Assembly: GCA_035289925.1 (NCBI GenBank)
Contig: DATDVR010000008.1
Coordinates: forward strand, 849-64,848
Direction of reading: 5' to 3'
Length of the DNA stretch: 64,000 bases
Origin: Candidatus Nanoarchaeia archaeon
Lineage (GTDB): Archaea; Nanobdellota; Nanobdellia; SCGC-AAA011-G17; DATDVL01
In this document: positions 7,204 through 37,373 of the stretch, one piece after another
Numbering within the stretch: the first letter of the stretch is position 1
Layout of the letters: the number at the start of each line of letters is the position of its first letter
Program-made: the position numbers and the translations under genes
Notes under the pieces: model-generated
Told to the model about the DNA's origin: nothing
Database searches by the model: none
The model's input: the letters and a program-made list of their open reading frames with translations, nothing else

Positions 7204-10200
7204 TTACTGTTTAGTCTGATTAATAAAAGTAATAATCCTATTTTTAATAGCAGCAGTGGAAGCATTTGAAAGTTCTAAAACATTCAAGACAGGGGTTATA
7301 TTAAACATGTTCAAGAAAGTTTCATTTTCGCTTATATAGTTGAAGGCCCAAGTTTGGTTATTTAGTCTTGTAACTACATCAAAAACGCCCAACATTTGGC
7401 TATTAAATTGATTTCTTGCGTAAATTGCCTGTTCTAAATATTCTAATTGACTCCCGTTTATTGCACTATTTCTTATGCCTTCAACTATTGCCTGTTCAGC
7501 ATCAGTTTCATTAGCAGAAAGCTCTACTTTTATAGTAAAATTAATCTCAGAAAAAGCACACAAATTATTTGTATCACAAGTTTTGACATTCCATAGATAA
7601 GAATTGGTTGGTAGATTTTTAACTTCAAACAGAGATTTATTATAATTTCCATCAATAGCAATAGTTTGATTTAACTGCCAAACTCCACTAATATTTATAT
7701 ATAAAGAAGCGTTATTTAACCCTTCTGCATCAGAATTATTTGCTATAAATGTGATGTTGCCAGTGCTGTCAAGAGAATTATTTAATGGGTTTATCAAAAC
7801 AGTAAGTGGCATGTCATTTATCCCAGCAACATTAACAATTATGGTTGTTGAATTTTGTTCTTTTAAGCTATCAAATGCAGTAAGGTTTAGTTCAACTTTG
7901 CCATATTGGTTGGGGTAGGTAGAAATATTTATTATGTTTGTGCCATTTTCTATTGTTAAATTAAATTTAGTGGTATCATTCAGTGTAAACGTCCATTCTA
8001 ACATTGAATCAGTGTCATTAAAGTCTGAGACATTTCCCGATAGATTTAAGGTTAAGTTTGTATCCTCATTTATGGTGATATTAATTAAATTAAAGGTTGG
8101 CAGCCCATTTACTTTAAAGTAGCTTTGAGTAAAAGTCCCGTTTGCAATTCCATCGCTAGGATTTAGAAGTACGTAATAAGTGATTGTTCTGTTTAATGTT
8201 GTAGAAATATTAAACTTTGTTTCATCTACACCACTAACAACATTAAAGGTGTATACTGTAGGACCTGAAGACGTATTTAAATTAACCCTGCCATAATAAG
8301 TCAGATTATCGCCATCAGAGTCTACTGCATTGCTCCAGTTAATGCTAGGAGTCAAATCAGATATAGAAGAATTTCTAGGGTTTGTTATTGCAGGTTTACT
8401 AGGATCTAAGGGATCAGTTTCAAATTCAGGGATGCTATTGTAAACATAAAAGCTATGCAACGTGCCCTGCCCCAAGTTGTTTAAGCTGTCATTTGCATAA
8501 TAGCGCCAGCTTACATTCTGTCCTCTGCTGTAATTCCCGATTCCAAGCGAAAATAAATAATCGATATCTGTGACTGTCCAGTTTTTAAATTGTCCACTTG
8601 AGTTTTCAGAAAAAAATACTGTATCCACCCCGCTTGGATCATCTATACTTGCGGTAAAGCTTATCATATTTTCCTTTGTTACTTGTTGAGGAAAATACAA
8701 TTCGTTGCTTATGCCTGGTGGTAGATTATCTAGTGTAAACTCAAAAGTCTGGCTTGTATTACAATTATTTACAATATCGCAGCTTACAATAGCCCAGTGA
8801 TAGATTCCAGCATTTGTCAAATTCAAATAAAAAATAAAATCTGATTTTTTTATCTCGGTATAATTTGTCTGATTTTCTGAGAAGACACCTGTAAAATCAC
8901 CAAAAAGTGTTACATTTTTTATTATGCTATTATCTGCAATAGTAACATTGAATGCGATAAAATTATTATTAAACGCACTGCTATTAGCAGGAGAGTTTAA
9001 TGTCATATTTGGCGGCAAAGTTTCCTTAACATATTCAAGATATACTTCATCCAATGCAGGAGTAAAATCAGTATTTTCTGTATTAAAGTAATTCGCATAC
9101 TGGAACAAAGTTTTATTTGAGAAAAAACTCTTGTTTAATATATAAAATTGCGATTCATTTTCAAAGTAAGAATCTGCATTTCCATCAGGTCCAATAAAAG
9201 CCTCAGAATCACAGGTATCCTCACAAATTCTAGCCTGCATCTTTAGTGAAACTGCGCCTTGAACATACATTTTTTCTATTTCAGAAGGCGATAAGCTTCT
9301 ATTCCATATGATAACTTCGTCCATAGTCCCATTTAAAGAATGGTCAGTTCCAATTGACTCATTATATCCTATTAAAAGCACTTGGGTATTATTGGCTAAC
9401 TTGCCTATAATTGATCTATTCCCAGTTTCCCTTCCATTTAAATAAATTTTTAGCTCATCAGATGTATGATTAAATACCCCAACCAGATGAGCCCAAGAGT
9501 CTTTTGTTATAGAAGTATTAGAAACGGCAACTTTCCCAACATTTGACGCATTAATTATTGCAAACGAAGCGTTATTGCCAGTAGTTATTCTCAGCCAATA
9601 ATGGGCAGGTTTTCTTACAAGGTATGTTGTTGTAGAATTATCATACTTTTTTACCCAAGCGCTTATTGAAAAGCTTCCATTAAAGTCAAGACTTTTGTTA
9701 TATTTGACAGTTATATGTGTTTTATTTGATGTGTTAAAAGTATATGCAGATAAAAACCTTCCAGAAATGTTGTAAGTTGGGCAGTAGCCAAAAGAACATG
9801 TTCCATTATTTTTTCCAGTTTCATCTTTAAAGAATGTTGCATTCTCGCCAGCTCCATTGTTAAGGTGCATTAGCAATACTATGCTATTGCTCATGTTCAT
9901 TTGCTGGCCATATTTAATGGGAGTAGTAAAAGTAAGGTTATCCCAACTCATGCCGCCAGCATATATTCTAGAAGTATAATTTCCATAAGAATAATAAGGG
10001 ATTTGATAACTCGTTGAATTTGCCAATACAACATATCCGGATGCATTAGAAGTAGTGTTATAATAAGTTCCTTCATCAAAATCAGTTTGTGTTGAGGTAT
10101 TATAAGTTGGATAAGGAATTAAGTATTCTTTGTTATTTATATATGTGCTTACATTATAGTTATCTTTAGTATTATAAGGCACCATGAAAAAGCCATGCAA

Positions 10201-10716
10201 AATTGCTGTTCCGTTCAATGTAATTTTATCTAAAGATCTTATATCAGCAAAGGAAGTTTCATTTTCAAGATGGCTTCCAATTTTCTTTCTAAATCCAAAT
10301 ATGTTGTAATCATAGTCGCAATACTCCATAGTCACGCCTAATTCCTCTTCATAGTTACACTTTAAAGCATAATCATTGACTTCTTTTGTTTTTAACTGCT
10401 CAAGATATATATTATTATTGGAATAAAAGGAATCTAATCCGCCATTGGATATTATTTTATGGATATCTTTACTTGAGTCGAGCAAAAAATTGATTCCATT
10501 TATTGACAATATAAACTCGCACTTCTGCCTGAAGTCATTCAAAGAAGTTCTGTTATAATATCCGCTGCAGGTAATATCTTCTGGATTATATTTAAAAATA
10601 AGTCCATCTTCATTTATGCCAACTGCTTTATCTTCCCTAAATAAAACGGCAGATGTACTTAAGCTTAGCAAAGCTAATAAAAACATTGTAGTTATTGTTA
10701 ATTTATAGTTTCTCAT
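7204..10716 (-). CDS. giant secreted surface protein with a LamG/concanavalin-A-like lectin domain
   Basis: Has a signal peptide (TTMFLLALLSLSTSAV). The LamG_3-type motif LNGTMDEVIIWNRSLSPSEIEKMY is present, as are D.DGDNLTY motifs. NxS/T sequons are very dense. It overlaps the upstream gene by 4 nt. Confidence 0.7.
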   Translation of the reverse strand: MRNYKLTITTMFLLALLSLSTSAVLFREDKAVGINEDGLIFKYNPEDITCSGYYNRTSLNDFRQKCEFILSINGINFLLDSSKDIHKIISNGGLDSFYSNNNIYLEQLKTKEVNDYALKCNYEEELGVTMEYCDYDYNIFGFRKKIGSHLENETSFADIRSLDKITLNGTAILHGFFMVPYNTKDNYNVSTYINNKEYLIPYPTYNTSTQTDFDEGTYYNTTSNASGYVVLANSTSYQIPYYSYGNYTSRIYAGGMSWDNLTFTTPIKYGQQMNMSNSIVLLMHLNNGAGENATFFKDETGKNNGTCSFGYCPTYNISGRFLSAYTFNTSNKTHITVKYNKSLDFNGSFSISAWVKKYDNSTTTYLVRKPAHYWLRITTGNNASFAIINASNVGKVAVSNTSITKDSWAHLVGVFNHTSDELKIYLNGRETGNRSIIGKLANNTQVLLIGYNESIGTDHSLNGTMDEVIIWNRSLSPSEIEKMYVQGAVSLKMQARICEDTCDSEAFIGPDGNADSYFENESQFYILNKSFFSNKTLFQYANYFNTENTDFTPALDEVYLEYVKETLPPNMTLNSPANSSAFNNNFIAFNVTIADNSIIKNVTLFGDFTGVFSENQTNYTEIKKSDFIFYLNLTNAGIYHWAIVSCDIVNNCNTSQTFEFTLDNLPPGISNELYFPQQVTKENMISFTASIDDPSGVDTVFFSENSSGQFKNWTVTDIDYLFSLGIGNYSRGQNVSWRYYANDSLNNLGQGTLHSFYVYNSIPEFETDPLDPSKPAITNPRNSSISDLTPSINWSNAVDSDGDNLTYYGRVNLNTSSGPTVYTFNVVSGVDETKFNISTTLNRTITYYVLLNPSDGIANGTFTQSYFKVNGLPTFNLINITINEDTNLTLNLSGNVSDFNDTDSMLEWTFTLNDTTKFNLTIENGTNIINISTYPNQYGKVELNLTAFDSLKEQNSTTIIVNVAGINDMPLTVLINPLNNSLDSTGNITFIANNSDAEGLNNASLYINISGVWQLNQTIAIDGNYNKSLFEVKNLPTNSYLWNVKTCDTNNLCAFSEINFTIKVELSANETDAEQAIVEGIRNSAINGSQLEYLEQAIYARNQFNSQMLGVFDVVTRLNNQTWAFNYISENETFLNMFNITPVLNVLELSNASTAAIKNRIITFINQTKQ

Positions 10717-13700
10717 GGAACCACCGTGCTAATTGTCTTTGAATCTGATATAGTTGAATTGAAGATAATGGCTTTTACAGTCTTGTTTCCAGACTGGGTA
10801 TAATTGTTTTCTATAAAGAAGAATATACTCTCGCTGCCAGTAAAGTTGAATAGTTGAGTGCTGTTAATTAAATTATCCGAAGTGTTTAGAGACCACGATA
10901 AATTCGCTATTTTATAAATCTCAATATTCAATCCAAGAAATTCAAATATAAAGTTTTTTCCAGAGGAGTTTGTAACAGATAAATTCGCTATATTAAAGGT
11001 TGGTGTTGGAGGAAATGTAAGATTTATATTTAAAGTCATGTTCATTCTAGGTTGCAGGTAATCTGAAAATAATTGGCTTCCATTTATGTCAGAAGCGCTG
11101 CATCTAACCATAACTCCATCCTGAGCGCTTACATTTATGAAATTCCAGGATACATTTTTATCTTTTGTATGATTTCCTACTCTTTCCCAATAGTGCTGGT
11201 TTGACTGGTATGTGATGTTAATATCATAGTATGTTAAATTGCCCCTATTGTCAGAATGGAAAACTACCGGAACTGAGCAATTCCCATACTGATCAGGAGT
11301 GCAATCAAAAAGATAATTGTTAATTTCTCTAGATAAGTCGGCAGTAAATTGAGGAGAATTATTCGAATCAAAAGTGCCTGCAAGCAGCCATTCATTAGTT
11401 TCGTCTGCTCCAATGTTTAATGACGGATTGAAAATCGTATTGTTTATTTCATAGCTTATGTTCATATAAATTCTCTTTGATGTATCAATTGAGTATTCCT
11501 TGCTCCAAAAAATCATATAATTCCCCTCAGCTTGATTTCCAGCAGAACCTTCAGCAACCCAGACAACAGATACTTTGTTGCTGTCATTTCCTAGCGCAGC
11601 ATTCAAAGCCTTAACAACATCTGCAAATACCCATCCCAAACTGCCAGCCCCCCCTATATCTCTGTCAACAGTAACATTGACTAAGAACCCTAAACTTGGC
11701 TTATTTGAATAAACTAAATTTTCCTCTTTCCACGTTACATTTGATGAATAATAAAGTTTAAGCCTTCTAGGTGGGAATTTCCTGTTTTCACGTTCATATC
11801 CAGCAATAAAAGCGCTAGTTATATTTGCACTTTCTTGTAAGTTTGTAATGTTAAACACTAACCAAGTCCATGTTTCCCCTACATTTGGATCTTCTTTAGT
11901 CTGGTTTGAGACAAATAACTCTGTTAGTGAGCCGTAATTAGTATTTATTTTTGAATTACCATCCGCATTAGCACCATTGGTAAAAGTATCTTCCAGTAAT
12001 TCAGTATCAGGAGTTTTTAGCTGCATATTTCCAGACTCGTAAGTTACATTGCTCTTTAGAACTACCTGCGCAAAATTTACAGTTATGTTCTTAGGCAATG
12101 TAATATATCTAGTGATGTTCTCATCACCAGTAAAAGACAAGTTTTCTTCAGCTAATCCATTTGAAAAAGTATTGATATAACCGCTAGAAACATTAGTGCT
12201 GTGGTTGTAGAAGGCATCAACAAAGTAAGTTATATTATCATTTTCTGGATCTATACTGCCATTGCACATTATGTCAAACTGATTGAAAAAAGTCTCATTT
12301 GTAATGCATAAATTAGTGTTACAGAAAATTTCAGATGGTGTTGTAGGCTCATTCTGGTTTGTAATCCCATAAGTATCAATGTTATTTGTTTCATTTAACT
12401 CTTCAATAAAGTCGTCAAAGTCAGCTATTGCGACTATTTTTGATGATATATTTGTAGCATTTATCTGATAAATAAAAGATTGTGAAGTATTGATATTAGG
12501 TATTAAAGAGGTGTTTGAATAAGATTCATTGTCAAAAACATCAACGAAAACATTGAAAGCTGGTGCATTGCCTTTATTGGTAACGTTAATCTGCAATGTT
12601 GCATCTCTGGCAGCAGTAAAGCTAACATTTAAATCTAGAATAAAATCTGGAAGCGGAGGCGCTGCAAATCCCAAGTAAGAATAAGCGTTTGTAATATAAG
12701 GCTCAAATACAAAGTCTACTTGTTTGTTGTTCTTCGAAAGATTTGCATACTGAATTAAGTAAGGTCCGTCAACTTTTGCGTAATGTATTACAGTGGCATT
12801 TATCCTTGACCTAAATACTTGTAATCCAGTGGTTGTAAAGTTGGTAGCGTTAGTGTAATTTAAGACGAAATTATTAAACAAATCTGACAAAGAATATTCA
12901 ATAGTATGCACTCCGATATCTTTTATGTTTACAGTAAAGTTCAGATCAAAATATTCTGTAATATTGTCATTCTGCAAGTCAAGAGCAGAATCAGAATAAT
13001 TGTAGAAATAGGAGGTTTTTGCAAAGTCTTCGTAATTATATGACGATGTAGTATGATTCGTATCTATCAATAAATCTCCTATTGCAACATTGTCGATAAG
13101 ATAAGTGCCACTGTAATGTGTGCTCTTTATGGTCTCATTGTCAAAATAAATGTTTAAAGTGTTTGAGCCAGCAGCCATATTATAAAGAGAAGTTGATGAT
13201 ATGCTTTTATTGCTATAATCCATGAAAACAGTGACATTTACATTGCCTAAGCTTTCATTGGCGTTAACACTTAGGGTAATCTTGATAAAGCTCGAGGTAT
13301 TTACGGCAGAATCAGTAATTGAAGTAATGCCCAAAAGCTGCGCATAATTTAAAATTGTCAAAGGAATCTTCTCTCTTTTGAAAACGAGGCTATCTGTAGT
13401 ATTATAGACAATGACAGAATAATTAAATACTGTGCCACTCAACAAAGAAGTCCTTAAGCTTATATTCACGTTTGAATCAGACGAGCTGACAAACTTGCTT
13501 GTTGTGTTTGATATTGTAGTATTCTTGTCGAACAAAGAAACGATGAAAGTATAATTAGTTGAATTAGTGGCATCCGTTATCAAAGTGAATAAAATTGTAT
13601 CATTCTTCCCATCATTGTTAATATCTTTCGCAATCCCTGTAGTGTTTGTAATATTTATTGTCCCATCATAAAAATCAAAGTTATAGGAAGCTACTAATTC

Positions 13701-13778
13701 TTCTAAAGTTAATGAAGCTACAGCTAATGAAAATGTTGCTAATAATATTGTTATTAATATTAATTTATTCAACTTCAT
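10713..13778 (-). CDS. giant secreted surface protein with a CARDB-like domain
   Basis: Has a signal peptide (KLILITILLATFSLAVA). The CARDB signature is NVTNKGNAPAFNVFVDVF...DFDDFIEELNETNN. The protein is Asn-rich and sequon-rich. Confidence 0.7.
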   Translation of the reverse strand: MKLNKLILITILLATFSLAVASLTLEELVASYNFDFYDGTINITNTTGIAKDINNDGKNDTILFTLITDATNSTNYTFIVSLFDKNTTISNTTSKFVSSSDSNVNISLRTSLLSGTVFNYSVIVYNTTDSLVFKREKIPLTILNYAQLLGITSITDSAVNTSSFIKITLSVNANESLGNVNVTVFMDYSNKSISSTSLYNMAAGSNTLNIYFDNETIKSTHYSGTYLIDNVAIGDLLIDTNHTTSSYNYEDFAKTSYFYNYSDSALDLQNDNITEYFDLNFTVNIKDIGVHTIEYSLSDLFNNFVLNYTNATNFTTTGLQVFRSRINATVIHYAKVDGPYLIQYANLSKNNKQVDFVFEPYITNAYSYLGFAAPPLPDFILDLNVSFTAARDATLQINVTNKGNAPAFNVFVDVFDNESYSNTSLIPNINTSQSFIYQINATNISSKIVAIADFDDFIEELNETNNIDTYGITNQNEPTTPSEIFCNTNLCITNETFFNQFDIMCNGSIDPENDNITYFVDAFYNHSTNVSSGYINTFSNGLAEENLSFTGDENITRYITLPKNITVNFAQVVLKSNVTYESGNMQLKTPDTELLEDTFTNGANADGNSKINTNYGSLTELFVSNQTKEDPNVGETWTWLVFNITNLQESANITSAFIAGYERENRKFPPRRLKLYYSSNVTWKEENLVYSNKPSLGFLVNVTVDRDIGGAGSLGWVFADVVKALNAALGNDSNKVSVVWVAEGSAGNQAEGNYMIFWSKEYSIDTSKRIYMNISYEINNTIFNPSLNIGADETNEWLLAGTFDSNNSPQFTADLSREINNYLFDCTPDQYGNCSVPVVFHSDNRGNLTYYDINITYQSNQHYWERVGNHTKDKNVSWNFINVSAQDGVMVRCSASDINGSQLFSDYLQPRMNMTLNINLTFPPTPTFNIANLSVTNSSGKNFIFEFLGLNIEIYKIANLSWSLNTSDNLINSTQLFNFTGSESIFFFIENNYTQSGNKTVKAIIFNSTISDSKTISTVVP

Positions 13779-13932
13779 TATTTACCTCTTTTCTGCATCC
13801 ATTTGAAAATCCAACATAGTCTGCCTTGTCTAAGGAAGGATTTGCATTTAAGACACCATCCCTTTCTGAGTAAGCTAAAGCTGCAGAAACTGAAGCTAAG
13901 CTTACAAGTAAAAAGAGAAAAATACGCTTCAT
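13765..13932 (-). pseudogene. orphan fragment of the lipase-like paralogs (signal peptide fused to an internal segment, truncated at the GFSNGC elbow)
   Basis: Translates MKRIFLFLLVSLASVSAALAYSERDGVLNANPSLDKADYVGFSNGCRKEVNNEVE*. Compared with the 14243-15226 product, it lacks about 85 aa between the signal peptide (SLASV) and PASVSAALAY. It ends just after the GxSxG motif. Its ATG overlaps the stop of the 13929-14231 gene (ATGA). Confidence 0.6.
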
Positions 13933-14231
13933 CTTCCGCCTCGTAGTTTTTTGATTATAAGAGCAACTAAATAGAATAAAAGACCATATGTAAATGGTGC
14001 TGTAAAAAATACTAATCCATAAACGATAAGGCAACCTAAATCATTAGTACAATTACTTAAAGTATATATTAATAGTAAAATTGGGTACTGCACATCGAAT
14101 ATAAAAAAACCAGTCACAACTTTAATAATATTGATATCAGCAAATGTTGCTCCAAGAATAGAAATTATTAGACCAAATATAAAACCAAATATAAAATATT
14201 TAGCATTTGATTTAAATTTTATTTTTTTCAT
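13929..14231 (-). CDS. small polytopic membrane protein (about 3 TM, basic C-terminus)
   Basis: 100 aa and hydrophobic, ending KKLRGGR. It occupies the same position and has the same size and topology as the 15223-15504 gene. Confidence 0.55.
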   Translation of the reverse strand: MKKIKFKSNAKYFIFGFIFGLIISILGATFADINIIKVVTGFFIFDVQYPILLLIYTLSNCTNDLGCLIVYGLVFFTAPFTYGLLFYLVALIIKKLRGGR

Positions 14232-14242
14232 TTTTATTCCTC

Positions 14243-15226
14243 CTATTGTCCACTTAATAAAAAGTAATTTCTTTCATAATTAGTAAGTGACTCATTATTC
14301 AAAGTTTTTCTAATAAAACTCTTTGTCCATTCATTATTTGTTAATCCCAAATGTGAAGTGCCAGCAATTCCCACTCTTCTTTTATTGTTTGAATTAACAT
14401 TGCTATAAATTGCTTGCTGGTCTGAAAGTGTTACAACGCCATCATTACCGAAGGGATAACCAACAATTTGCCCCTCAATTAAAGCAAATTTGTTTAAAAA
14501 TAAACTAGAAGCTGGTTGACTATCAACACTTGACTCAACCCAATTTATATATTGTTCCCATAATTTTAAAGAAATTTTAGAATTATTATTATCAGAGATC
14601 ATATTTTTCTCACCAAGCAAACCAGATTTAACTATCTCAGGTAGAGTTACATGAGTTTTTCCTTTTGATCTTAAATTTTTTAAACTATCCTCACCAGAAA
14701 ATTTAATTAAAGTCTTAGCAACACTATCACCTTCAAAAGCACCAGGACACGCAACCCCAACAAAAGTATCTATTGGAGAAGCTGGAAGTGATGTATCTAC
14801 AATCAGGCTTTTAGTCTCATTCTCAATCTTCCAGTTGTTGCTGTATCCACTTCCATGCTCTTTTAAAGAATCTAAAGCAACCCTGCATCCATTTGAAAAT
14901 CCAACATAGTCAGCCTTATCCAATGAAGGATTGTACTTCAATACTCCATCTCTTTCCGAATAAGCTAAAGCTGCAGAAACTGAAGCTGGCCACCAGTCGT
15001 CTTTCAAGGTTTCATAGGTGTAATCTGGACATGTGTCGCATTCTTCATTTGGCCCTCCAGTAACTTCAATCATCCATCCTTCTCTTCCTGTATTAGCCAT
15101 CTCGTTGGAAAACTCTTGCCATTTGAACAAGTTATTCCACAAGCCTCCTGAATAAATGACTGGCTTTGCTCTTGCTGTGGCAACAGAAGCTAAACTTACA
15201 AAGAGGAAAAAAGAAAAAAATCTCAT
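14243..15226 (-). CDS. secreted alpha/beta-hydrolase-like protein (lipase/esterase GxSxG)
   Basis: Has a signal peptide (MRFFSFFLFVSLASVATA) and the nucleophile-elbow motif YVGFSNGCRVAL. It is paralogous to the C-terminal ~335 aa of the 15514-19008 product. Its ATG overlaps the stop of the 15223-15504 gene (ATGA). Confidence 0.6.
   Translation of the reverse strand: MRFFSFFLFVSLASVATARAKPVIYSGGLWNNLFKWQEFSNEMANTGREGWMIEVTGGPNEECDTCPDYTYETLKDDWWPASVSAALAYSERDGVLKYNPSLDKADYVGFSNGCRVALDSLKEHGSGYSNNWKIENETKSLIVDTSLPASPIDTFVGVACPGAFEGDSVAKTLIKFSGEDSLKNLRSKGKTHVTLPEIVKSGLLGEKNMISDNNNSKISLKLWEQYINWVESSVDSQPASSLFLNKFALIEGQIVGYPFGNDGVVTLSDQQAIYSNVNSNNKRRVGIAGTSHLGLTNNEWTKSFIRKTLNNESLTNYERNYFLLSGQ
15054..15178. 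repeat. 125-nt near-identical segment shared with 16346-16470
   Basis: Aligned base by base by eye, the copies differ at 2 positions in 125. The segment encodes KPVIYSGGLWNNLFKWQEFSNEMANTGREGWMIEVTGG in both paralogs. Confidence 0.9.
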
Positions 15227-15504
15227 CTTTTTCTCCCTAGTTTATTCTTAATTTTCAAGAAAAGCCATGTTAATAGCATGCCTATAAGGAACCAAAATAG
15301 AATATTAAAAATAAAAAATAATACTCTATTATCTTTATCAATTAAATTTGTCGTAATAGCACCGGGGTATAAAAAAACTAAGAATATTGCACAAAGAAGA
15401 AATAAAGTATTTACACAACTATCAGATAAAGCAAACATAGTAATGAATAATATCATTATGACCATTATTACCCCACCAAATATTATTTTATATTTATTTT
15501 CCAT
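15223..15504 (-). CDS. small polytopic membrane protein (about 3 TM, basic C-terminus)
   Basis: 93 aa and hydrophobic, ending KNKLGRKR. It lies between the two lipase-like genes. Confidence 0.55.
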   Translation of the reverse strand: MENKYKIIFGGVIMVIMILFITMFALSDSCVNTLFLLCAIFLVFLYPGAITTNLIDKDNRVLFFIFNILFWFLIGMLLTWLFLKIKNKLGRKR

Positions 15505-15513
15505 TTTTTCCTC

Positions 15514-18500
15514 CTAATTAGTCTTCTGTTTAACATAAAGATTAATCTCATCTTTTGTCAAAGATTCATTATTCAATATTTTCTTAATAAGTACCATATT
15601 CGTTCTACTCTCAACCATAAAATTATGTGAATAAAAATTAGATAAGTAAACTTTATTATTGGAATTTATATTGTTATAAATAGCCTGAGCATCATTAGTT
15701 GTGACAACATCATCATTACTATTATTTGTAGCTTTCCCTCTAAATGAACCTTCTAATATCGCAAACTTATTAAAAGAAACTCCAGAACCTGGTTGGCTAT
15801 CATTAGTTTTAGTAGCCCAATCGTTATACTGACTAAATAAATTAACAGAAATTTTATTATCCTTATTCCCATTATCTAATAAACCAAATAAATAATCACC
15901 AACAATAGGCAAAGCAATTGCAACAAATTGATTTCTAGTTGCATGATTAATATTTTTAGTTCTAAGATTATTTATTGTTAAACTACCAGCTAACTTAAAT
16001 CCACTTTTGAATACAGAATCCCCTTCAAACGCGCCAGGGCATCCAACCCCAACAAAAGTGTCTATGGGAGATGAAGGCAGTGAAGTGTCAAGCACCAAAT
16101 CCCCATCTATATCTTCCCTCTTCCAGTTGTTAGAGTATCCTGCACCATGCTCGCTTAACGAATCTAAAGCAACTCGACATCCATTTGAAAATCCTACATA
16201 ATCTGCCTTGTCCAGGGAAGGATTTGCATTCAGCACTCCATTAGTTTCTGAGTAAGCTAGAGCTGCTGCAACAGAAGCTGGCCAGTAGTCATCAACTAAA
16301 TCATCATAAGTGTAGTCCTTGCAGGTGTCGCATTCCTCGTTAGGACCTCCAGTAACTTCTATCATCCATCCTTCTCTTCCTGTATTAGCCATCTCGTTGG
16401 AAAACTCTTGCCATTTGAACAAGTTATTCCACAAGCCTCCTGAGTAAATGACTGGCTTTGCTCTTGCTGTTGCGTCTAAAAACTTATTTGATTTTGTTGC
16501 TTTTACCTGTTTCAATCTTAGAACTGTGTTGTCATTTGTTTTGACATTCTTCAAGTCTTCCTGGAAAGTATTATGCAAACTGTTATTAACGATGAGCATG
16601 AAATTATTATTGTCCTGGCTGTAGTATTTCTGCTGTGTTTCGTTTGCATGCATGTAGTCTGATATTGAGATTGCTTTCACGTCTAAATTGTTAATGTATT
16701 CAGAATTCTCAGTACCTATCTTGGCAAAGTATTTTCCTTGATTTTCAACAAATCTTTTTACTGCTGCTATTGTTCCGTCTATTTCTGTTCCGTAAATCAA
16801 TATGTAATTAGTGCTTCCCTGCTTAAATCCTGCAACGACTCCATTGTAAGGATAAATTCCTTTCTTCCCTTCATAATCCAAGTATCTGTCTTTCTTGTTT
16901 ACCTGGAACTTCTTCTTAAGCCCATAGGTAAAGTCATTAATTGAGCTTGTAGGTGAAGGCTTTCCAACTTTTAAAGTAACGTCCTGCCCAGAACAAGAGC
17001 TTAATATTTCAACATTGTTCAATACTCCATTCTTCTTTAAGTAATTAGTTATAATATCATCAATTTTTCTTAAGTTTGTATTTATGTCAAAGCATACTTT
17101 AGGAACTTTTCCCTTGTATTTATTCACTTCGTTATTGTTCCTGTTCTCATCTCCGCTTTTAGAATTTGGATCAACAACGACCTTAAAGCTAAAAAGATTA
17201 TTCCCATTAAGAGGCACGCTTACTAATTTTGAAGAATAAGAAGATAAGGAAGCAGTTACTGTCCTGCTGTCAATCTTTCTGTTGTCCTTGTCAAAGCCAG
17301 TAAAGCTTACCTCAAGGTTTGAAGGTGCTAGGTTCTCTGTTCTTACCAAAGCAGAGACATTCACGCTTGAAGATGAAATATCAGCCAGGCTTACATCTTC
17401 AGCATTTAGCAAAACGTCTTTTTTATTTAAGCAAATCTGGCAGTTAAAGCTCAAGCTTTCAGTCTCGCCTTCAATGTCAATCGCAGCCTGTTTGGTCTGG
17501 CAGACAGTGGAGGCATCAGAGCATTTTACTTGTATGCTTTGCAGTTCACCGCAATTGTAGTTGCTCAAGCTTAATGATTTGTAGCCATTTGAATCTGATT
17601 GTCCTTGTGAATTTGAATTTAAGTAAACATAGGTGCTTGCAACGCTGCTTCCGTCATTGTCTTGGGATAATACATTTAAGGTTCCTGAGCATTTTTGTGC
17701 AGCTGCTCCGCCACATTTTCCAGAAGTGCAAGTTCCTGTGCTACAATCAGAAGCCTCATCACAAGTTAGTCCATCGCTTATTTTGGCCTGACAAGTTGAA
17801 TCGCATCTTCCAGAGTCACATTGACTGTTGTCGTTGCTTGTGCAAGTTTCGCCATTATTTCCATTTGTGCATATTTTAGTTCCAATAGAGCCCATGCAGT
17901 CATAGCCCCCATTGTCGTTCCAGCACTGTGAATTTGAAGTGCATGTAGCATATTTATTTAGTTTGCAAATATCAAGAGAAGTAAAAGAATCGTCACGGAC
18001 TTTCTCTAAATCTCTATCACATATATAATTAGCATCTAAGTCTGAGCTACAACTTTTACTTTCAGTATCAGTACCGCCAATAACCCCCCTCCCACCACAA
18101 GATTTAACATTAGTCTTCTTAGTAGTCACGGTCAAAGAAAAACTATCAGAACCATCAGACGAACATTTTGAAGTGTATTCTGTACCTGTGCTACCGCATT
18201 TTCCAGAAAAACATTGTTTATCAGCAGTACAAGCATTATAGTCTTCAGTCCCATCAGCAATGCTACAAGGATTTAACAGAGAGGCAGTCCTTGAACTAGA
18301 CTCAACATCATCATGGTTATCGTGGTTATCATTCTCGTCACATACAGTATAGTAAGGGTTTGGGCACTGGTTAAACTTTATATCTTTCCATGGAAGAGAA
18401 CTACTATACCTACCTTGCGAATAATAATGGTAAGTAAGTCCACTACAATCTAATTTTTTTCTATCTACAATATAAAATGTTTGGTAAATATACCCTGATC

Positions 18501-19008
18501 TTCCCCTCTTTCCAGCAGAATTATCGCAATCGTAATAAACCTCAGCTCTAGCATCGTATCTTTTTTTTGTTGAAGTATCAACGCCATCGCAAGTAGCGCA
18601 TATTCTCGAAGGCAGACCATCAATACCAATCCTACAGTCACTCTCAAGTTTACAGCCAGCTTTCCAAGTAGACGACATCCCCCCAGGGATACTGAAAGAA
18701 GAATTACAAGAGTTTGCATTACAACCCCCACCTCCGCAACCCCCACCAGTACTATTATCCCAATAACAATTGTCCCATCGTCCATTACTGTCCCAATCAT
18801 AACATACCATATCAGCTTCTGTATTAGTTATATCAATTAATTTTGGTAACACTTCATCATCAACAAATGCGATACTATCAGAAGTGCTACTGCCCACACT
18901 ACTATCACTACCCCACTCATCTATCATTGAGATAGAAAGGGCATTAACTGCTAAAACATGAAATACGACTAAAATTAGGATTAACAACATCCTTTTTTTG
19001 TACATCAT
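15514..19008 (-). CDS. giant secreted Cys-rich surface protein with a C-terminal lipase-like alpha/beta-hydrolase domain
   Basis: Has a signal peptide (LLILILVVFHVLAVNA) and long Cys-rich repeats (for example CTSNDNSQCDSGRCDSTC). A CARDB-like segment ends DENRNNNEV. The C-terminal domain is homologous to the 14243-15226 product and contains YVGFSNGCRVAL. Confidence 0.7.
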   Translation of the reverse strand: MMYKKRMLLILILVVFHVLAVNALSISMIDEWGSDSSVGSSTSDSIAFVDDEVLPKLIDITNTEADMVCYDWDSNGRWDNCYWDNSTGGGCGGGGCNANSCNSSFSIPGGMSSTWKAGCKLESDCRIGIDGLPSRICATCDGVDTSTKKRYDARAEVYYDCDNSAGKRGRSGYIYQTFYIVDRKKLDCSGLTYHYYSQGRYSSSLPWKDIKFNQCPNPYYTVCDENDNHDNHDDVESSSRTASLLNPCSIADGTEDYNACTADKQCFSGKCGSTGTEYTSKCSSDGSDSFSLTVTTKKTNVKSCGGRGVIGGTDTESKSCSSDLDANYICDRDLEKVRDDSFTSLDICKLNKYATCTSNSQCWNDNGGYDCMGSIGTKICTNGNNGETCTSNDNSQCDSGRCDSTCQAKISDGLTCDEASDCSTGTCTSGKCGGAAAQKCSGTLNVLSQDNDGSSVASTYVYLNSNSQGQSDSNGYKSLSLSNYNCGELQSIQVKCSDASTVCQTKQAAIDIEGETESLSFNCQICLNKKDVLLNAEDVSLADISSSSVNVSALVRTENLAPSNLEVSFTGFDKDNRKIDSRTVTASLSSYSSKLVSVPLNGNNLFSFKVVVDPNSKSGDENRNNNEVNKYKGKVPKVCFDINTNLRKIDDIITNYLKKNGVLNNVEILSSCSGQDVTLKVGKPSPTSSINDFTYGLKKKFQVNKKDRYLDYEGKKGIYPYNGVVAGFKQGSTNYILIYGTEIDGTIAAVKRFVENQGKYFAKIGTENSEYINNLDVKAISISDYMHANETQQKYYSQDNNNFMLIVNNSLHNTFQEDLKNVKTNDNTVLRLKQVKATKSNKFLDATARAKPVIYSGGLWNNLFKWQEFSNEMANTGREGWMIEVTGGPNEECDTCKDYTYDDLVDDYWPASVAAALAYSETNGVLNANPSLDKADYVGFSNGCRVALDSLSEHGAGYSNNWKREDIDGDLVLDTSLPSSPIDTFVGVGCPGAFEGDSVFKSGFKLAGSLTINNLRTKNINHATRNQFVAIALPIVGDYLFGLLDNGNKDNKISVNLFSQYNDWATKTNDSQPGSGVSFNKFAILEGSFRGKATNNSNDDVVTTNDAQAIYNNINSNNKVYLSNFYSHNFMVESRTNMVLIKKILNNESLTKDEINLYVKQKTN
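16346..16470. repeat. 125-nt near-identical segment shared with 15054-15178
   Basis: See the partner copy at 15054-15178. Confidence 0.9.
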
Positions 19009-20342
19009 TAGGATTCACCAAAATGTTCTTTTTTCCATTTCTCCTGAGCCTCAATCCATTCATCTAAATTAAATGGTCTCTTGAAATATTCTTCATACCT
19101 TTTGATAAATTCTTCCATAGTCTCAGAAGAATTTTGTGGAAAGTCTTCTAGAGTATAATTTTTCAAAGGATCAAATGCTTGTTCCTCTTCTCTTTTTTTT
19201 CTTTCTTCAACATCAGCAGGGTCTATAAATCTCAGATTCACAAAAAAATCAGCGTTTTGTCTTTCAAAGATTTTATCAAAAAAATCAGTATTTTTTACAT
19301 CATTAATCCTATCAAAATATTTCTCATTAAACTTTTTTCTATTTATACACTCCTCTAAAATATAGTCATAATTATATTCTACAATATCAACCCCAAAATT
19401 ATCTCCCTTGAAATTGTCTCTAATTAAATTACTTAAGTTATTATAGCATTCTCTTAAAAATTTATCTTTAAAACTATTTTTTAATATAAAAACATCTCTT
19501 GATTTACATTGCTCTAAAATTTCTTCTAGCTCTTTTTGAGAATGTGGCAAATCAAATTGATCAGTTTCCAAAACCTTTTTAATTTTCTCTTTATTAGAGT
19601 CAGAAGGACAACTAAATTCTTTATTGCTATCCTTCAAAGTCTTAATTAGTTCTTTACTAGATACCCCTTGAAAGAAGAAATCTTCATTTCTTAATACTTC
19701 GCCACAATCATCTTCATTACAATCACTAGGATATAACTTAAGATATTCTAAAATAATATCTGTAGGGAACTCATTATTTTCCAAAGGCTTTACAGCAGTT
19801 ATATCACTAAACTTACCTTTCACTTTTATAAAGAATGGACCACTTTTCCAGAAAACATAACTATTAGTTTTATCATAAAAAACTTTATTGCCATTAAAAT
19901 CAGAAACTTTAATGCCATCTTCAATTTGAGAATTTACCCAAGAAATCAAATAACCTTCATCAAAAAGAGTACTGTCAATCAATCTTCCATCAAATGGATA
20001 AATAGAAACGCTATACTTCACATCAGTTTCATTATCAACTATACTATTTTTATCAACATAAGAAAAAAGATAAACGGGCACAAAATCCTCATCAGTTTTC
20101 GCTTCGGCATCTTCATTTAATGTTTCAGAAGAGTACTCGTTGATTAGTTCAAAATTTTTTACTTGAGGTATCTTTCTTATTTCAAAATCAATTCTTTTTT
20201 CAACTATTTTAGATTGTTTATCAAATTCCTTAGCTAACTTCTCTTTATCAAAAACATACTCTGCATTAGAAAGTATAGTTATTAAAATTAAAGATATTAA
20301 TGCAAAAAGTATTGGATACAATTTTCTATTCTTTATAGTCAT
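19008..20342 (-). CDS. hypothetical N-terminally anchored protein
   Basis: The ORF track starts it at 20360. The ATG at 20342 gives a typical signal/anchor, MTIKNRKLYPILFALISLILITILSNA. Its stop overlaps the start of the 15514-19008 gene (TAATG). Confidence 0.55.
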   Translation of the reverse strand: MTIKNRKLYPILFALISLILITILSNAEYVFDKEKLAKEFDKQSKIVEKRIDFEIRKIPQVKNFELINEYSSETLNEDAEAKTDEDFVPVYLFSYVDKNSIVDNETDVKYSVSIYPFDGRLIDSTLFDEGYLISWVNSQIEDGIKVSDFNGNKVFYDKTNSYVFWKSGPFFIKVKGKFSDITAVKPLENNEFPTDIILEYLKLYPSDCNEDDCGEVLRNEDFFFQGVSSKELIKTLKDSNKEFSCPSDSNKEKIKKVLETDQFDLPHSQKELEEILEQCKSRDVFILKNSFKDKFLRECYNNLSNLIRDNFKGDNFGVDIVEYNYDYILEECINRKKFNEKYFDRINDVKNTDFFDKIFERQNADFFVNLRFIDPADVEERKKREEEQAFDPLKNYTLEDFPQNSSETMEEFIKRYEEYFKRPFNLDEWIEAQEKWKKEHFGES

Positions 20343-20820
20343 AAGTAACACCACCAACATACCATTTCTCTTTTAATTTTTCTCTTAAATCTTCGACAGC
20401 ACGAATTTTAGCATTCTCGCTTATAATATCATCAAACTCTATTTTTATTTGAGCTCTTTCAATATTGATGTTCCAAGCAACAAGTTCAATTGAAGTTATA
20501 TCATCAATTTCGCTTTTAATATTTACAAGATCATTATAAAAGTATGACTTAAAAGCAGCATTTTCAACGCCACTTATGTTGCCTTTCTCCTTGCTTAAGT
20601 AAGTGCTTGCTTTAATTCCATCTTGCTCTTTCTGGTTAAAATCTACAAATAAAGAATCTAAGTTATAATCAATTTTTTTCTGAATGCAGCCAATAAGGAT
20701 AATAGTCAGTAAAAAAAGCAAAAAGATTACAATTCTTTCTAATCTAAGTACTTTAAAGCTACTTTGCAAACCCCGCAATCCCCCCAATATTGAAGCATTA
20801 CATAGATATATAAATTTCAT
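20326..20820 (-). CDS. hypothetical lipoprotein-like or membrane-anchored protein
   Basis: 164 aa. A hydrophobic segment ends in a lipobox-like LIGC. Confidence 0.45.
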   Translation of the reverse strand: MKFIYLCNASILGGLRGLQSSFKVLRLERIVIFLLFLLTIILIGCIQKKIDYNLDSLFVDFNQKEQDGIKASTYLSKEKGNISGVENAAFKSYFYNDLVNIKSEIDDITSIELVAWNINIERAQIKIEFDDIISENAKIRAVEDLREKLKEKWYVGGVTYDYKE

Positions 20821-20838
20821 TAATTACTTCAAAGTGAC

Positions 20839-21411
20839 TTATCTGCATAAAGGAAGTCCTTTCACTTGAAGGTTCTGTATAGTCTTGCATAGCTTAACAT
20901 TTCCAGTATGATTTATGTATAGATAGACACAGTTGTCCCTGCTCAAGCTGTTCCTTGCTATATACTTGCTACTGTTGTATAGATAGTTACAGTTTCCAAC
21001 ATCATTGTTTTTTATTGCAAGCTCATTCACGCAGTTGTTCCTTTTTTCCTCTCCATCAATTTTGTCGCAAACTTCAACTTTTCCAGAAGACAAGGCTGCT
21101 TTGAAGAAGCATTCGTTGCTTTTATCTGCATTTTTTACATAATAGCACAAGCTTTCATCTTTTTGAGACACAGCAAACTCAATTAAACAATCATTTTTTG
21201 TATGCCAATCGCTTTCATCAGGAAGTTCATAGCAGTAGTCTGCATATCCTGCCTGCAAAGCAGTATTATATTCGCAGTTTTTAACGTCAAATTCGTTTCC
21301 AGCATCCTTGCATGCTTCTAATTTTGCCTTGTTCTCGTCAGAAATCTCTCTTGCAGGCTTGCATGCAACCAAAAATATTGCCAAAAAAATAATTATCGCC
21401 TCTTTTTTCAT
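20839..21411 (-). CDS. Cys-rich secreted or lipoprotein-like protein
   Basis: The ATG at 21411 gives MKKEAIIIFLAIFLVAC, which is lipobox-like. Cys pairs then recur regularly. The first start in the ORF track (21423) is a TTG. Confidence 0.5.
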   Translation of the reverse strand: MKKEAIIIFLAIFLVACKPAREISDENKAKLEACKDAGNEFDVKNCEYNTALQAGYADYCYELPDESDWHTKNDCLIEFAVSQKDESLCYYVKNADKSNECFFKAALSSGKVEVCDKIDGEEKRNNCVNELAIKNNDVGNCNYLYNSSKYIARNSLSRDNCVYLYINHTGNVKLCKTIQNLQVKGLPLCR

Positions 21412-21460
21412 GCAGTAAAACAAATTAAATTCGTATATAAATTATTCTAATTTATGAATA

Positions 21461-22462: not shown

Positions 22463-23794
22463 TTAAAGCCTTACCTTATGTCCGTTCGTTAAAGAATGAA
22501 CTCTCTTGTTGTTGTAGCCCATCTCTTTTGCCAAGTCAGCAACCCTCGTCATTAATTTATGGTCGCCTTGGCACGGTATTATATGCTCTGGATTCAGTAT
22601 TTTTATGAAGTCTCTCAAGTCTTCTTTGCCACAGTGCCCTGAAGAATGAACACCTTTAAACAGTCTCAATCCTTTCTGCATGAACTTCCTTTCCATTATA
22701 GCCCTGTTAGTTATGTTAGGCTCCACAGGAATTACTCTATTTGAAAAAATTACGCTGTCCTCTTTCCTGAATTCAAAAGGCAGTTCATTGTGCAGCATCC
22801 TTGACAATACTGAGCTCTTTTCTCCTTGACCTCCGGTTGCTATGATTACGTAATCGCTTAGCCCATCTTTTTCAATCTTTTTCAATTTTTTTCTTATCTG
22901 GTTTTTATATGTTACAATCTCGGCTTCCTTAGAATATTTGCACAACCCAACATTTTCAGCAGACTTGATGTATTTCGTGAAGCTTCTTCCTAAAATCAGG
23001 ACTTTCCTATTCAATTTGTGTGAAAAATCAATTATGCTTCTTAGTCTTGCGATGTGAGAAGCAAAGCATGAAACAACTATGGCATGTCCTCTATTGTCTT
23101 CCTCAACCATGACTTCTTTGAGCATTTCCCTTGCAACAAGTTCTGAAGGAGTTTTATCTTGCGGAGCCGGAATTGAATCCAAAACCAATGCTTTTATTCC
23201 AATCTGGCTTAGCTCTTTTAATTTTTCATAGTCTACTTTGTCCCCTAAAACAGGATGGTTGTCTAACTTGAAGTCATTTGCATACAAAATAATTCCTTCC
23301 TTTGTATGAACTGCCAGTAAAGAAGTCTGCAGTGTAGAATGAGGAACATTTACAAATTCTACTTTTAAGTCTTTGTTTATTTTGTAAATTTTTCCTGGTT
23401 GCACCTTTTCAAACTTGTTTTTTAGATGCATTTTGTCATCATTCATCATTGTCTTAAGAACTTCCAAAGTGAATGGAGTACCAACAATAGGCGCATTATA
23501 TTTAGGAGCCAAATAAGGTATTGCTCCAATATGGTCTAGATGGCAGTGTGAAGCAAATATTCCCCTCACATTATTTCTCCATGAATTTAATACATTGTCA
23601 TCAGGGATTCCTTCCAGCTTTATCATTTGCTCTGTTGTTAGCTCTTGTCTGCTCCCACCATCTTCCTCAAAATCAGCTATTTTTTGCAGAAAAAATCCCA
23701 TGTCAAGAACTATTGCATCGTCATTTACTTTCAACGCAGACATGTTTCTTCCAGATTCTCCATATCCTCCTACGCCACAGAATTCAATTGCCAT
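22463..23794 (-). CDS. rnj: archaeal RNase J-like beta-CASP metallo-beta-lactamase ribonuclease
   Basis: The true start is taken as MAIEFCGVGGYGESGRN (ATG at 23792-23794). It carries the HxHxDH motif (SHCHLDHIGAIPYL) and is about 443 aa. The longer 555-aa ORF overlaps the upstream permease. Its ATG overlaps the permease stop (TAATG). Confidence 0.75.
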   Translation of the reverse strand: MAIEFCGVGGYGESGRNMSALKVNDDAIVLDMGFFLQKIADFEEDGGSRQELTTEQMIKLEGIPDDNVLNSWRNNVRGIFASHCHLDHIGAIPYLAPKYNAPIVGTPFTLEVLKTMMNDDKMHLKNKFEKVQPGKIYKINKDLKVEFVNVPHSTLQTSLLAVHTKEGIILYANDFKLDNHPVLGDKVDYEKLKELSQIGIKALVLDSIPAPQDKTPSELVAREMLKEVMVEEDNRGHAIVVSCFASHIARLRSIIDFSHKLNRKVLILGRSFTKYIKSAENVGLCKYSKEAEIVTYKNQIRKKLKKIEKDGLSDYVIIATGGQGEKSSVLSRMLHNELPFEFRKEDSVIFSNRVIPVEPNITNRAIMERKFMQKGLRLFKGVHSSGHCGKEDLRDFIKILNPEHIIPCQGDHKLMTRVADLAKEMGYNNKRVHSLTNGHKVRL

Positions 23795-37075: not shown

Positions 37076-37373
37076 TTTTAAATAACGCATATAAAAATCC
37101 AATTATTCCTCCAATTATTCCATAAAATATAGGATTATAGATAAATCCATAAAAGATAACAAAAAATCCACAGGATTCACCTATTCCAAGTCTAAGTAAA
37201 TTACAAAGCGCTTCATCAGGTACTTTCGAAAATATAGTATAAACTATCACAGGCAATCCTAATTTTTCTCCGAAAAGTACAAAAAATGGAACTTTAAATA
37301 ATCCAAATATCATTCCAATAAATAAACCTTTACCCCAAATAGGGAGTTTTTTCCATCTATCTTTAAGCTTCAC
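37065..37373 (-). CDS. small polytopic membrane protein (GESC motif)
   Basis: 102 aa and hydrophobic. It contains GIGESCGFFVIFY, which resembles GGGGESCWSVFIY in the 37538-37951 product. Its stop lies 11 nt inside the PLC-like gene. Confidence 0.55.
   Translation of the reverse strand: MKLKDRWKKLPIWGKGLFIGMIFGLFKVPFFVLFGEKLGLPVIVYTIFSKVPDEALCNLLRLGIGESCGFFVIFYGFIYNPIFYGIIGGIIGFLYALFKNEK

Follow-up and report, generated by a model that had tools for sequence, protein, structure and literature searches.

A tandem array of exported alpha/beta-hydrolases and small membrane partners: a conserved two-gene cassette of DPANN archaea

The locus discussed here lies between positions 13765 and 19008 of a 64,000-nucleotide stretch of DNA (the window, in which all features of the locus are numbered) from a Candidatus Nanoarchaeia archaeon (assembly GCA_035289925.1, contig DATDVR010000008.1, positions 849 to 64,848), and it is a tandem array of a two-gene cassette that is specific to DPANN archaea of the Woesearchaeales/Pacearchaeales type. 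Each cassette encodes a Sec-exported Ser-Asp-His hydrolase, esterase- or lipase-like and with a variable cap, and, immediately downstream, a translationally coupled small polytopic membrane protein. This description is carried by the anatomy of the locus, the fold and catalytic triad of the hydrolases, their export signals, the conservation of the cassette, its restriction to one lineage, and the dynamics of the arrays. The cassette is best read as a surface effector, confined to this lineage, together with a cognate membrane partner that is dedicated to it. That this partner protects the producing cell is the version that we favour, with rather less than even confidence; substrate, target, and protective role are what we infer.

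The five genes, all on the minus strand, lie where an earlier note, made by a model from the DNA letters alone, had placed them. In the following, the hydrolase domain of the giant protein is referred to as copy 1 and the stand-alone hydrolase as copy 2.

15514-19008, minus strand: giant exported surface protein of 1164 aa, with a signal peptide at residues 1-25
17449-18828, minus strand: Cys-rich region of the giant protein (residues 61-520; 38 Cys, 8.3%)
16474-17691, minus strand: conserved middle or pre-hydrolase module of the giant protein (residues 440-845)
15517-16473, minus strand: C-terminal alpha/beta-hydrolase domain of the giant protein (copy 1, residues 846-1164)
16186-16188, 15712-15714 and 15625-15627, minus strand: catalytic residues S941, D1099 and H1128 of copy 1
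15223-15504, minus strand: TM93, the partner of copy 1; 93 aa, three hydrophobic segments and a Lys/Arg-rich C-terminal tail
14243-15226, minus strand: copy 2, a stand-alone secreted hydrolase paralogue; 327 aa, signal peptide MRFF...ATARA
14894-14896, 14441-14443 and 14351-14353, minus strand: catalytic residues S111, D262 and H292 of copy 2
14507-14731, minus strand: cap region of copy 2 (residues 166-240)
13929-14231, minus strand: TM100, the partner of copy 2; 100 aa, three hydrophobic segments, tail KKLRGGR
13765-13932, minus strand: open reading frame (ORF) of 55 aa, counted from its ATG, the decayed remnant of a third hydrolase copy

Copies 1 and 2 are 62% identical over 318 residues (E 4e-125) and both contain the string YVGFSNGC, and signal peptides are present on both the giant protein and copy 2, which bears out the proposal that the two share an exported hydrolase domain. 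The duplication is also visible in the DNA, at a spacing of 1271-1292 nt, and a hidden Markov model (HMM) search of all ORFs in the window found hydrolase-related sequences in copy 1, copy 2, and the 55-aa ORF only. The two ATGA stop/start overlaps to which the earlier note drew attention, at 15223-15226 and 13929-13932 (the latter also read directly in the DNA), are real, but no meaning can be attached to their being identical: at least six other 4-nt start/stop overlaps occur in the window among ORFs of at least 150 aa, and because such overlaps are common among its genes, the identity of the two junctions carries no information and is ordinary operon punctuation rather than the mark of a cassette boundary.

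Neither hydrolase matches any Pfam, NCBIfam, or PADLOC entry, and 38 relatives were found among 5.8 billion proteins, one of which is labelled 'alpha/beta hydrolase [Candidatus Woesearchaeota archaeon]'. In an alignment of 30 database homologues, S111 (in the elbow G-F-S-N-G), D262, and H292 of copy 2 are invariant, and the same is true of C114, C160, H192, and S219. Across 68 domains derived from related loci, the Ser and the Asp are each kept in 68/68 and the His in 66/68, the other two being alignment gaps, and the full Ser-Asp-His triad is kept in both window copies. The AlphaFold2 (AF2) model of the hydrolase (pLDDT 85, pTM 0.87) has the features by which alpha/beta-hydrolases are recognised, i.e., the canonical sheet, a G-x-S-x-G elbow with the nucleophile Ser after strand 5 (105-110), and the Ser-Asp-His order, with D262 after strand 7 (242-253) and H292 after strand 8 (277-288); a three-helix cap is inserted between strands 6 and 7. 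In a Foldseek comparison with the PDB, this model gave more than 1000 matches at E<=1e-3, all of them alpha/beta-hydrolases, including carboxylesterases, monoacylglycerol lipases, and gastric/lysosomal lipase (TM-scores 0.45-0.59). A longer model that includes the pre-hydrolase region (pLDDT 76) gave 683 PDB matches at E<=1e-3, again all alpha/beta-hydrolases, with dog gastric lipase at the top (E 8e-8). When the family profile was compared with PDB sequences, marginal matches to lysosomal/gastric lipase and PhaZ7 were obtained around the nucleophile elbow, and some family members have sub-threshold matches to Lipase_2 and Abhydrolase_1. Given the invariance of the triad, the AF2 model, and the Foldseek matches, the fold and the catalytic apparatus of this unnamed alpha/beta-hydrolase family are established. 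Thus, the lipase-like GxSxG hydrolase of the earlier note stands, with an intact triad, a confidently modelled fold, and lipases as its nearest relatives.

'Lipase' is nevertheless to be understood as the nearest label for an enzyme whose substrate and activity are predicted only, and the gastric/lysosomal acid lipases appear to be its nearest known relatives. With these enzymes and with PhaZ7 it shares the alpha/beta-hydrolase fold with a cap (elbow YVGHSQG there, YVGFSNG here), but the similarity is marginal (E 6e-4 to 3e-3; TM-score 0.4-0.54), and the motif WxxExxGG, the Cys114/Cys160 pair, and the pre-hydrolase module are absent from them as far as the alignments show. The motif, W-x2-E-x2-G-G, is specific to the family and occupies residues 51-58 of copy 2 (15053-15076); its E and both of its G residues are each found in 68/68 domains. 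Cys114 (14885-14887) and Cys160 (14747-14749), each present in 64/68 domains, may form a disulfide.

When 185,579 species were scanned, each represented by one genome, 55 loci came to light, all of them in metagenome-assembled genomes of Woesearchaeota, Pacearchaeota, and Nanoarchaeota or in some automatically binned records labelled 'Methanosarcinales'. ORFs were called in 60 fetched loci, numbered L001 and onwards where they have to be told apart, and were searched with the family HMM. In these loci, about 66 of the 70 complete hydrolase genes have a small ORF (58-224 aa, two to six transmembrane (TM) segments) directly behind them, at a distance of -20 to +15 nt, which agrees with the expectation that the membrane gene would be kept beside the hydrolase in relatives; hydrolases without such a partner are rare (approx. 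4/70). TM93 and TM100 each show three hydropathy peaks and a basic C-terminal tail, as had been described; however, the description has to be corrected in that the two proteins are not detectably similar to each other (E 0.63) and belong to different partner clusters. Indeed, the 69 partners fall into approx. 40 BLAST clusters, while the hydrolases keep 35-65% identity. For each of the two window partners there are nevertheless orthologues at the equivalent place in other loci. TM93 belongs to a cluster of 19 proteins of about 80 aa, the best-conserved part of which is the last helix, WFLxGSLxGFLVYKxKK, with its GxxxG; many members also have a C-x5-C loop. TM100 belongs to a separate cluster of three, together with proteins from L032 (107 aa) and L048 (98 aa), and this cluster is weakly reached by the TM93 profile. 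No transporter, toxin, or immunity family in Pfam, NCBIfam, or PADLOC is matched by the partners. A word-index search with TM93 recovered TM93 alone, and the partner families were therefore defined from the fetched loci.

ORFs of the TM93 type stand directly after a hydrolase gene in 20 of 21 cases, and because they are nearly confined to this position they are dedicated partners; the possibility, allowed for in the earlier note, that they are generic secretion factors does not hold. They occur only after hydrolases with a C-terminal extension of about 15 aa (18/25, compared with 0/43; Fisher 4e-11, a statistic inflated by shared ancestry). In mirror-tree and partial Mantel comparisons, partner distances correlate best with those of the hydrolase C-terminal half plus tail (r 0.88). 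It should be noted that a lone hydrolase gene is succeeded by a run of two or three small multi-TM genes in L002 (3097-4745), L031 (6853-7944), L043 (6869-7605), L053 (6956-7988), and L038 (1838-3012). That such extra genes are orphan immunity paralogues was considered and rejected, detectable similarity being limited to the pair in L002 (209 and 214 aa).

The commonest form of the hydrolase is the extreme C-terminal domain of a surface protein of 1000-1700 aa. Within the giant protein of the window, residues ~440-845 are homologous to the matching part of most related giants, and the Cys-rich N-terminus is not conserved; the protein has no Pfam or NCBIfam match and no trafficking, repeat, or pre-toxin domain (FHA, RHS/YD, LXG, VENN, and PT-TG). 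An exhaustive HMMER search with the pre-hydrolase module (residues 440-845) against 1.84 billion representative proteins gave 136 matches. In 94 proteins the match runs to the end of the module; beyond it, 88 of them have the hydrolase and none has another domain, and the remaining six are cut by contig ends. A word-index homology search with residues 500-845 (16474-17511) gave no match, even to the identical protein of L001, which marks the sensitivity limit of that tool; its negatives for divergent DPANN proteins are not trustworthy.

Since the C-terminal domain is constant, the enzyme is a fixed part of a conserved surface protein, which is the opposite of a polymorphic toxin. The earlier note had compared the locus with the toxin/immunity loci of contact-dependent inhibition (CDI) and Rhs type, so that the array would serve competition among related archaea and the downstream cassettes and fragment would be a recombining reservoir of orphan modules. 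Polymorphic toxin systems do occur in archaea (PMC6393860). As in CDI (CdiA-CT/CdiI) and Rhs loci, a large exported protein with a C-terminal enzyme is directly followed by a small gene, with further cassettes and fragments downstream, and gene conversion in the conserved 5' half of the hydrolase genes, discussed below, could in principle allow exchange of the variable 3' half together with the partner. However, the variable part is N-terminal here, and neither pre-toxin motifs nor trafficking, known toxin, or immunity domains of Pfam were found. The additional copies are complete genes with a signal peptide or pre-hydrolase module of their own, and the synteny of the surface operon is kept across distant genomes. 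Moreover, archaeal membranes are ether-linked, and an ester-hydrolysing lipase would not cut such lipids, which weakens the case for a membrane-attacking toxin directed against archaeal kin. Together with the nature of the fragments (see below), this leaves the CDI/Rhs-type explanation largely refuted and very improbable, and the polymorphic-toxin framing should be dropped.

The recurrent layout of the loci consists of the giant hydrolase gene, a TM gene, zero to two more hydrolase/TM pairs, sometimes a fragment, and a CARDB-like giant gene, and arrays of two or three cassettes recur. Some within-locus paralogues are ancient and have their best matches in other genomes (L002, L004, L030, L032, and L048); others are recent duplicates (63% identity in the window, 65% in L049, and 74% in L053). 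In six within-locus pairs (L027, L049, L052, L053, L054, and the window), the N-terminal halves are 71-99% identical, the caps 22-37%, and the C-terminal halves 27-50%, and in none of the six does concerted evolution extend beyond the N-terminal half of the hydrolase. The pair of L053 (7997-11274) has N-terminal halves that are 99% identical, with a synonymous divergence (dS) of 0.07, and a cap, C-terminal half, and downstream partner that are saturated or unalignable. Two tracts of copy 2 in the window belong to the same picture.

15047-15181, minus strand: tract of low dS at the 5' end of the copy-2 domain (codons 16-60; dS 0.1-0.3, compared with a saturated remainder)
14968-15068, minus strand: copy-2 tract of about 100 nt that differs between assemblies, with copy-1 sequence in L001

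The first tract indicates recent gene conversion with copy 1. The second emerged from comparison with L001, a second assembly of the same species, which is 99.8% identical to the window over 15 kb; of the 32 differences between them, 27 cluster in this tract (10159-10259 in L001), where L001 matches copy 1 at 115/116 positions, and a third assembly is identical to the window. The tract reflects either gene conversion at the population level or an assembly chimera induced by the repeat. Taken together, the identity of the N-terminal halves, the low-dS tracts, and the L001 tract show that gene conversion homogenises the 5' half of the hydrolase genes, while the cap, the C-terminal half, and the adjacent partner gene form one contiguous variable block. 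The ratio of nonsynonymous to synonymous divergence (dN/dS) of the cap is 1.5 in the window pair, a small sample, and 0.44-0.94 in the other pairs with an estimable, though saturated, dS. Positive selection on the cap is not claimed, as a ratio above 1 was found in the window pair only.

The 55-aa ORF at the end of the array was described in the earlier note as a mosaic with its junction on a repeated ASV string, and this description is confirmed in the DNA. A stretch of 105 nt (13793-13897) is 87% identical to copy 2 (E 2e-24) and 85% identical to copy 1 (E 3e-20), with a 5' third that is nearer to copy 2 and a middle and 3' part that are nearer to copy 1. A further piece of 16 nt matches the end of the copy-2 signal peptide (15/16), and the junction, SLASV|SAALAY, falls on the ASV string that is common to the signal peptide and the internal WPASVSAALAY. 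The 105-nt piece ends just after GFSNGCR, and a short new tail then overlaps the next gene by 14 nt. The ORF is thus a decayed, 3'-truncated hydrolase copy with an internal deletion at the ASV microhomology. The recurrence of fragments in related genomes, which the earlier note had proposed to check, is also supported: truncated hydrolase ORFs are found in four other loci (L006, L049, L054, and L060), all of them 3'-truncated, with differing breakpoints and without the Asp/His half or a partner gene, and their spans on the HMM are 4-57, 7-76, 8-85, and 47-101, compared with 95-119 in the window. The orphan modules of CDI/Rhs loci, in contrast, are 5'-truncated toxin ends accompanied by an immunity gene, and the idea of a displaced orphan module fails for a 5' piece that has neither the Asp/His half nor a partner gene. 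Fragments of this kind are decay products at the ends of arrays and not C-terminal orphan modules in the CDI/Rhs style.

It is also conceivable that the 55-aa ORF encodes a functional small secreted peptide, such as a decoy or a regulator, rather than being a pseudogene remnant. Its start codon lies in an ATGA overlap, its signal peptide is intact, and its frame is open. The ORF is identical in three assemblies, and in L049 and L054, too, a truncated hydrolase ORF lies ahead of the CARDB-like gene. However, the three assemblies represent one species, at 99.8-100% identity, and say nothing about selection; moreover, the breakpoints and the parts of the domain that are retained differ in the other loci, so that no common product is conserved. 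A functional peptide is thus a remote prospect. The array itself evolves by tandem duplication, by gene conversion of the 5' half, and by loss of copies through truncation.

What the cassette does has to be weighed against this background. According to the reading that we favour, the hydrolase would be displayed on, or released from, the cell surface and, on contact with a host or prey cell, would act on ester bonds in that cell's envelope. Its cognate membrane protein would stay in the membrane of the producer, where it would specifically restrain or neutralise its own hydrolase, i.e., it would provide self-protection of the immunity type. The cassette would then serve a conserved apparatus for interaction with hosts and not a polymorphic toxin for competition among kin. 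An immunity-like role is favoured because the partners are extremely variable, because hydrolases without a partner are nearly absent, because the half of the enzyme that varies lies right beside the partner gene, and because small polytopic proteins encoded beside exported toxins are usually immunity factors in known systems. According to two reports (10.1101/2023.12.06.570485, PMC11291902), cultivated DPANN archaea depend on host lipids and on cell contact.

Several observations, however, weigh against this interpretation. With ether-linked lipids, the membrane of the producer should be unharmed by an esterase, and there may be no need for self-protection, except where the enzyme acts on something other than lipids or where ester lipids have been scavenged into that membrane. 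Conservation and vertical inheritance of the hydrolase within a core surface operon would be expected just as well of a housekeeping exoenzyme. The partner is predicted to expose no more than a few to approx. 30 residues outside the cell, which is not much with which to inhibit a soluble enzyme. In the mirror-tree analysis, all parts of the hydrolase correlate with the partner through shared phylogeny, and the readings were not told apart. Furthermore, extra TM genes that lack a hydrolase are demonstrable partner paralogues in L002 alone (tm214 compared with the partner tm209), the elevated dN/dS of the cap is limited to the window's own pair, and the structural matches are generic at TM-scores of 0.45-0.59, 'lipase' being only the label that comes nearest.

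Some of the same facts would suit a different role, in which the partner is a cognate anchor or maturation factor that holds an otherwise anchor-less hydrolase, and with it the C-terminal end of the giant protein, on the surface of the producer. It would not protect the cell, and the enzyme would be used for scavenging of nutrients or lipids or for remodelling of the envelope. Neither the giant protein nor copy 2 has a TM segment or a C-terminal anchor, and the hydrolase is always extreme C-terminal, with a median of three residues between the end of the domain and the stop codon, and it is at this end that the anchor of an archaeal surface protein is usually found. With a TM helix and a Lys-rich tail at their own C-terminus, the partners resemble a C-terminal anchor supplied in trans, and the GxxxG helix is their best-conserved element. 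In addition, the type of partner tracks the C-terminal extension of the hydrolase, the best correlation of distances is with the C-terminal half and tail, as given above, and ether lipids remove the need for immunity. Nonetheless, structural subunits are seldom so variable in length (58-224 aa), in number of TM segments (2-6), and in sequence beside a binding partner that is 35-65% identical; a fused TM or lipid anchor would be the usual and simpler solution; and hydrolases without a partner should be tolerated, yet they make up only about 4 of 70. Docking or retention of this kind is accordingly a possible but doubtful explanation. An apparent fusion of partner-like TM segments with a CARDB-like protein in L055 (4339-8799, 1486 aa) would have favoured docking if real, but it spans a run of N ('XXXX') and was discarded as an artefact.

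A further explanation couples the two proteins in uptake, such that the hydrolase would free acyl chains, lysolipids, or other ester-bound nutrients and a small oligomerising membrane protein would take up or insert the product. The dependence of DPANN archaea on host lipids, as described in one report (10.1101/2023.12.06.570485), is in keeping with such a role, as are the translational coupling and strict adjacency of the two genes and the GxxxG helix, which suggests oligomerisation. However, transporters are normally conserved, whereas these partners are hypervariable and can be as short as 58-93 aa; none matches a transporter family, and there is no evident reason why each paralogue should have a different transporter. 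Coupled uptake is therefore considered unlikely, and the self-protecting surface effector is kept as the preferred reading.

The array is surrounded by genes for exported surface proteins. Its syntenic downstream neighbour in at least 20 related loci is the gene for the following protein.

10713-13778, minus strand: exported CARDB + CBM96 protein of 1021 aa, rich in N-glycosylation sequons

In the window, a surface island of genes for co-directional exported proteins, with overlaps of 1-14 nt, covers 7204-21423, 26357-28987, 30978-37102, and 38643-39443. Its products include a 1170-aa Laminin_G_3 protein, the 1021-aa CARDB+CBM96 protein, an 876-aa S_layer_C+fn3_5 protein, a 1123-aa Laminin_G_3 protein, a 918-aa FG-GAP protein, and a 266-aa S_layer_C protein. 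Housekeeping genes flank the island, at 3916-7139 and 22463-24130, with Mre11-like (Metallophos) and Rad50-like (SMC_N/AAA_23) genes downstream and an RNase J-type beta-CASP gene upstream; these labels come from the Pfam annotation of the identical contig L001. The neighbouring genes thus encode surface proteins, an ABC transporter, RNase J, and Mre11/Rad50, and no components of a type VI secretion system (T6SS) are among them. Two tRNA genes, presumably intron-containing, were found by Rfam on the minus strand at 347-451 (105 nt) and 2260-2387 (128 nt); ARAGORN found none in the window. Together with the relatives of the locus, these tRNA genes show that the DNA is archaeal.

Comparison with known systems reveals partial likenesses in several directions. 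In bacteria, the T6SS effectors Tle1-4 are GxSxG lipases with Tli immunity proteins, the latter being soluble periplasmic proteins or lipoproteins. Like Tle/Tli pairs, which are aimed at the envelope of a neighbour, the cassette places a GxSxG alpha/beta-hydrolase of a duplicated and diversified family beside a cognate gene. Unlike them, it is found in an archaeon, without T6SS, VgrG, or Hcp genes and without any relation to the Tle families in sequence or Pfam; its enzyme is Sec-exported and fused to a giant surface protein, and its partners are polytopic, with two to six hydrophobic segments and very short loops. The immunity proteins of pore-forming colicins and class II bacteriocins, which have approx. 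90-180 aa and three or four TM segments, reside in the membrane of the producer, are specific for their cognate toxin, and evolve fast. The partners resemble them in being small, polytopic, and encoded beside an exported protein; however, those toxins are pore formers that insert into membranes and not hydrolases, and no sequence relation was detected. Lif of Pseudomonas and Burkholderia is a protein of approx. 340 aa that has a single TM helix, at its N-terminus, and embraces the lipase with a large periplasmic domain. Lipase/Lif operons likewise encode a secreted lipase first and then a membrane-anchored helper specific for it, but the partners here (58-224 aa) are almost wholly membrane-embedded and have no match to Lipase_chap of Pfam. 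Finally, the VARTIG module of Thermococcales (PMC8416519) is likewise archaeal, with a large exported multi-domain protein at the head of the locus and variable small genes downstream in a layout resembling that of polymorphic toxins. In VARTIG, hypervariability resides in an Ig domain at the C-terminus of the large protein. The present locus has a conserved enzyme in that position, and what varies is the cap and C-terminal half of this enzyme, along with the membrane partner. None of these systems (Tle/Tli, bacteriocin/colicin immunity, Lif operons, and VARTIG) shares sequence, domain, or defining architecture with the locus. In addition, no description of such a hydrolase/membrane-partner cassette was found in the full-text literature on DPANN/Woesearchaeota lipases, effectors, immunity, and polymorphic toxins. 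What is new is thus a pair of unannotated protein families that form a conserved, DPANN-specific cassette of enzyme and membrane partner.

DPANN archaea are unable to synthesise lipids themselves and make their living through cell contact. The cassette, which is present in at least 55 species-level genomes, is a concrete candidate part of the machinery by which they physically exploit their hosts, and S111, D262, H292, and the partner's GxxxG helix are defined targets for mutation. There is also a caution to be drawn, i.e., a locus composed of a giant protein, a small gene, and a fragment need not be a polymorphic toxin system. In its boldest form, which can be considered possible though rather doubtful, the array would represent the first effector/immunity system of its kind in Archaea. 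A lipase-like effector, carried on a giant adhesin, would serve to breach or harvest the envelopes of host or prey cells, and each paralogue would have a polytopic immunity protein of its own to neutralise it in the producer. Recombination within the conserved 5' half of the hydrolase domain would diversify, and might exchange, the variable unit of cap, C-terminal half, and partner. If this is true, the cassette would be a miniature, intragenic version of the logic of polymorphic toxins, put to use in the conflict between symbiont and host.

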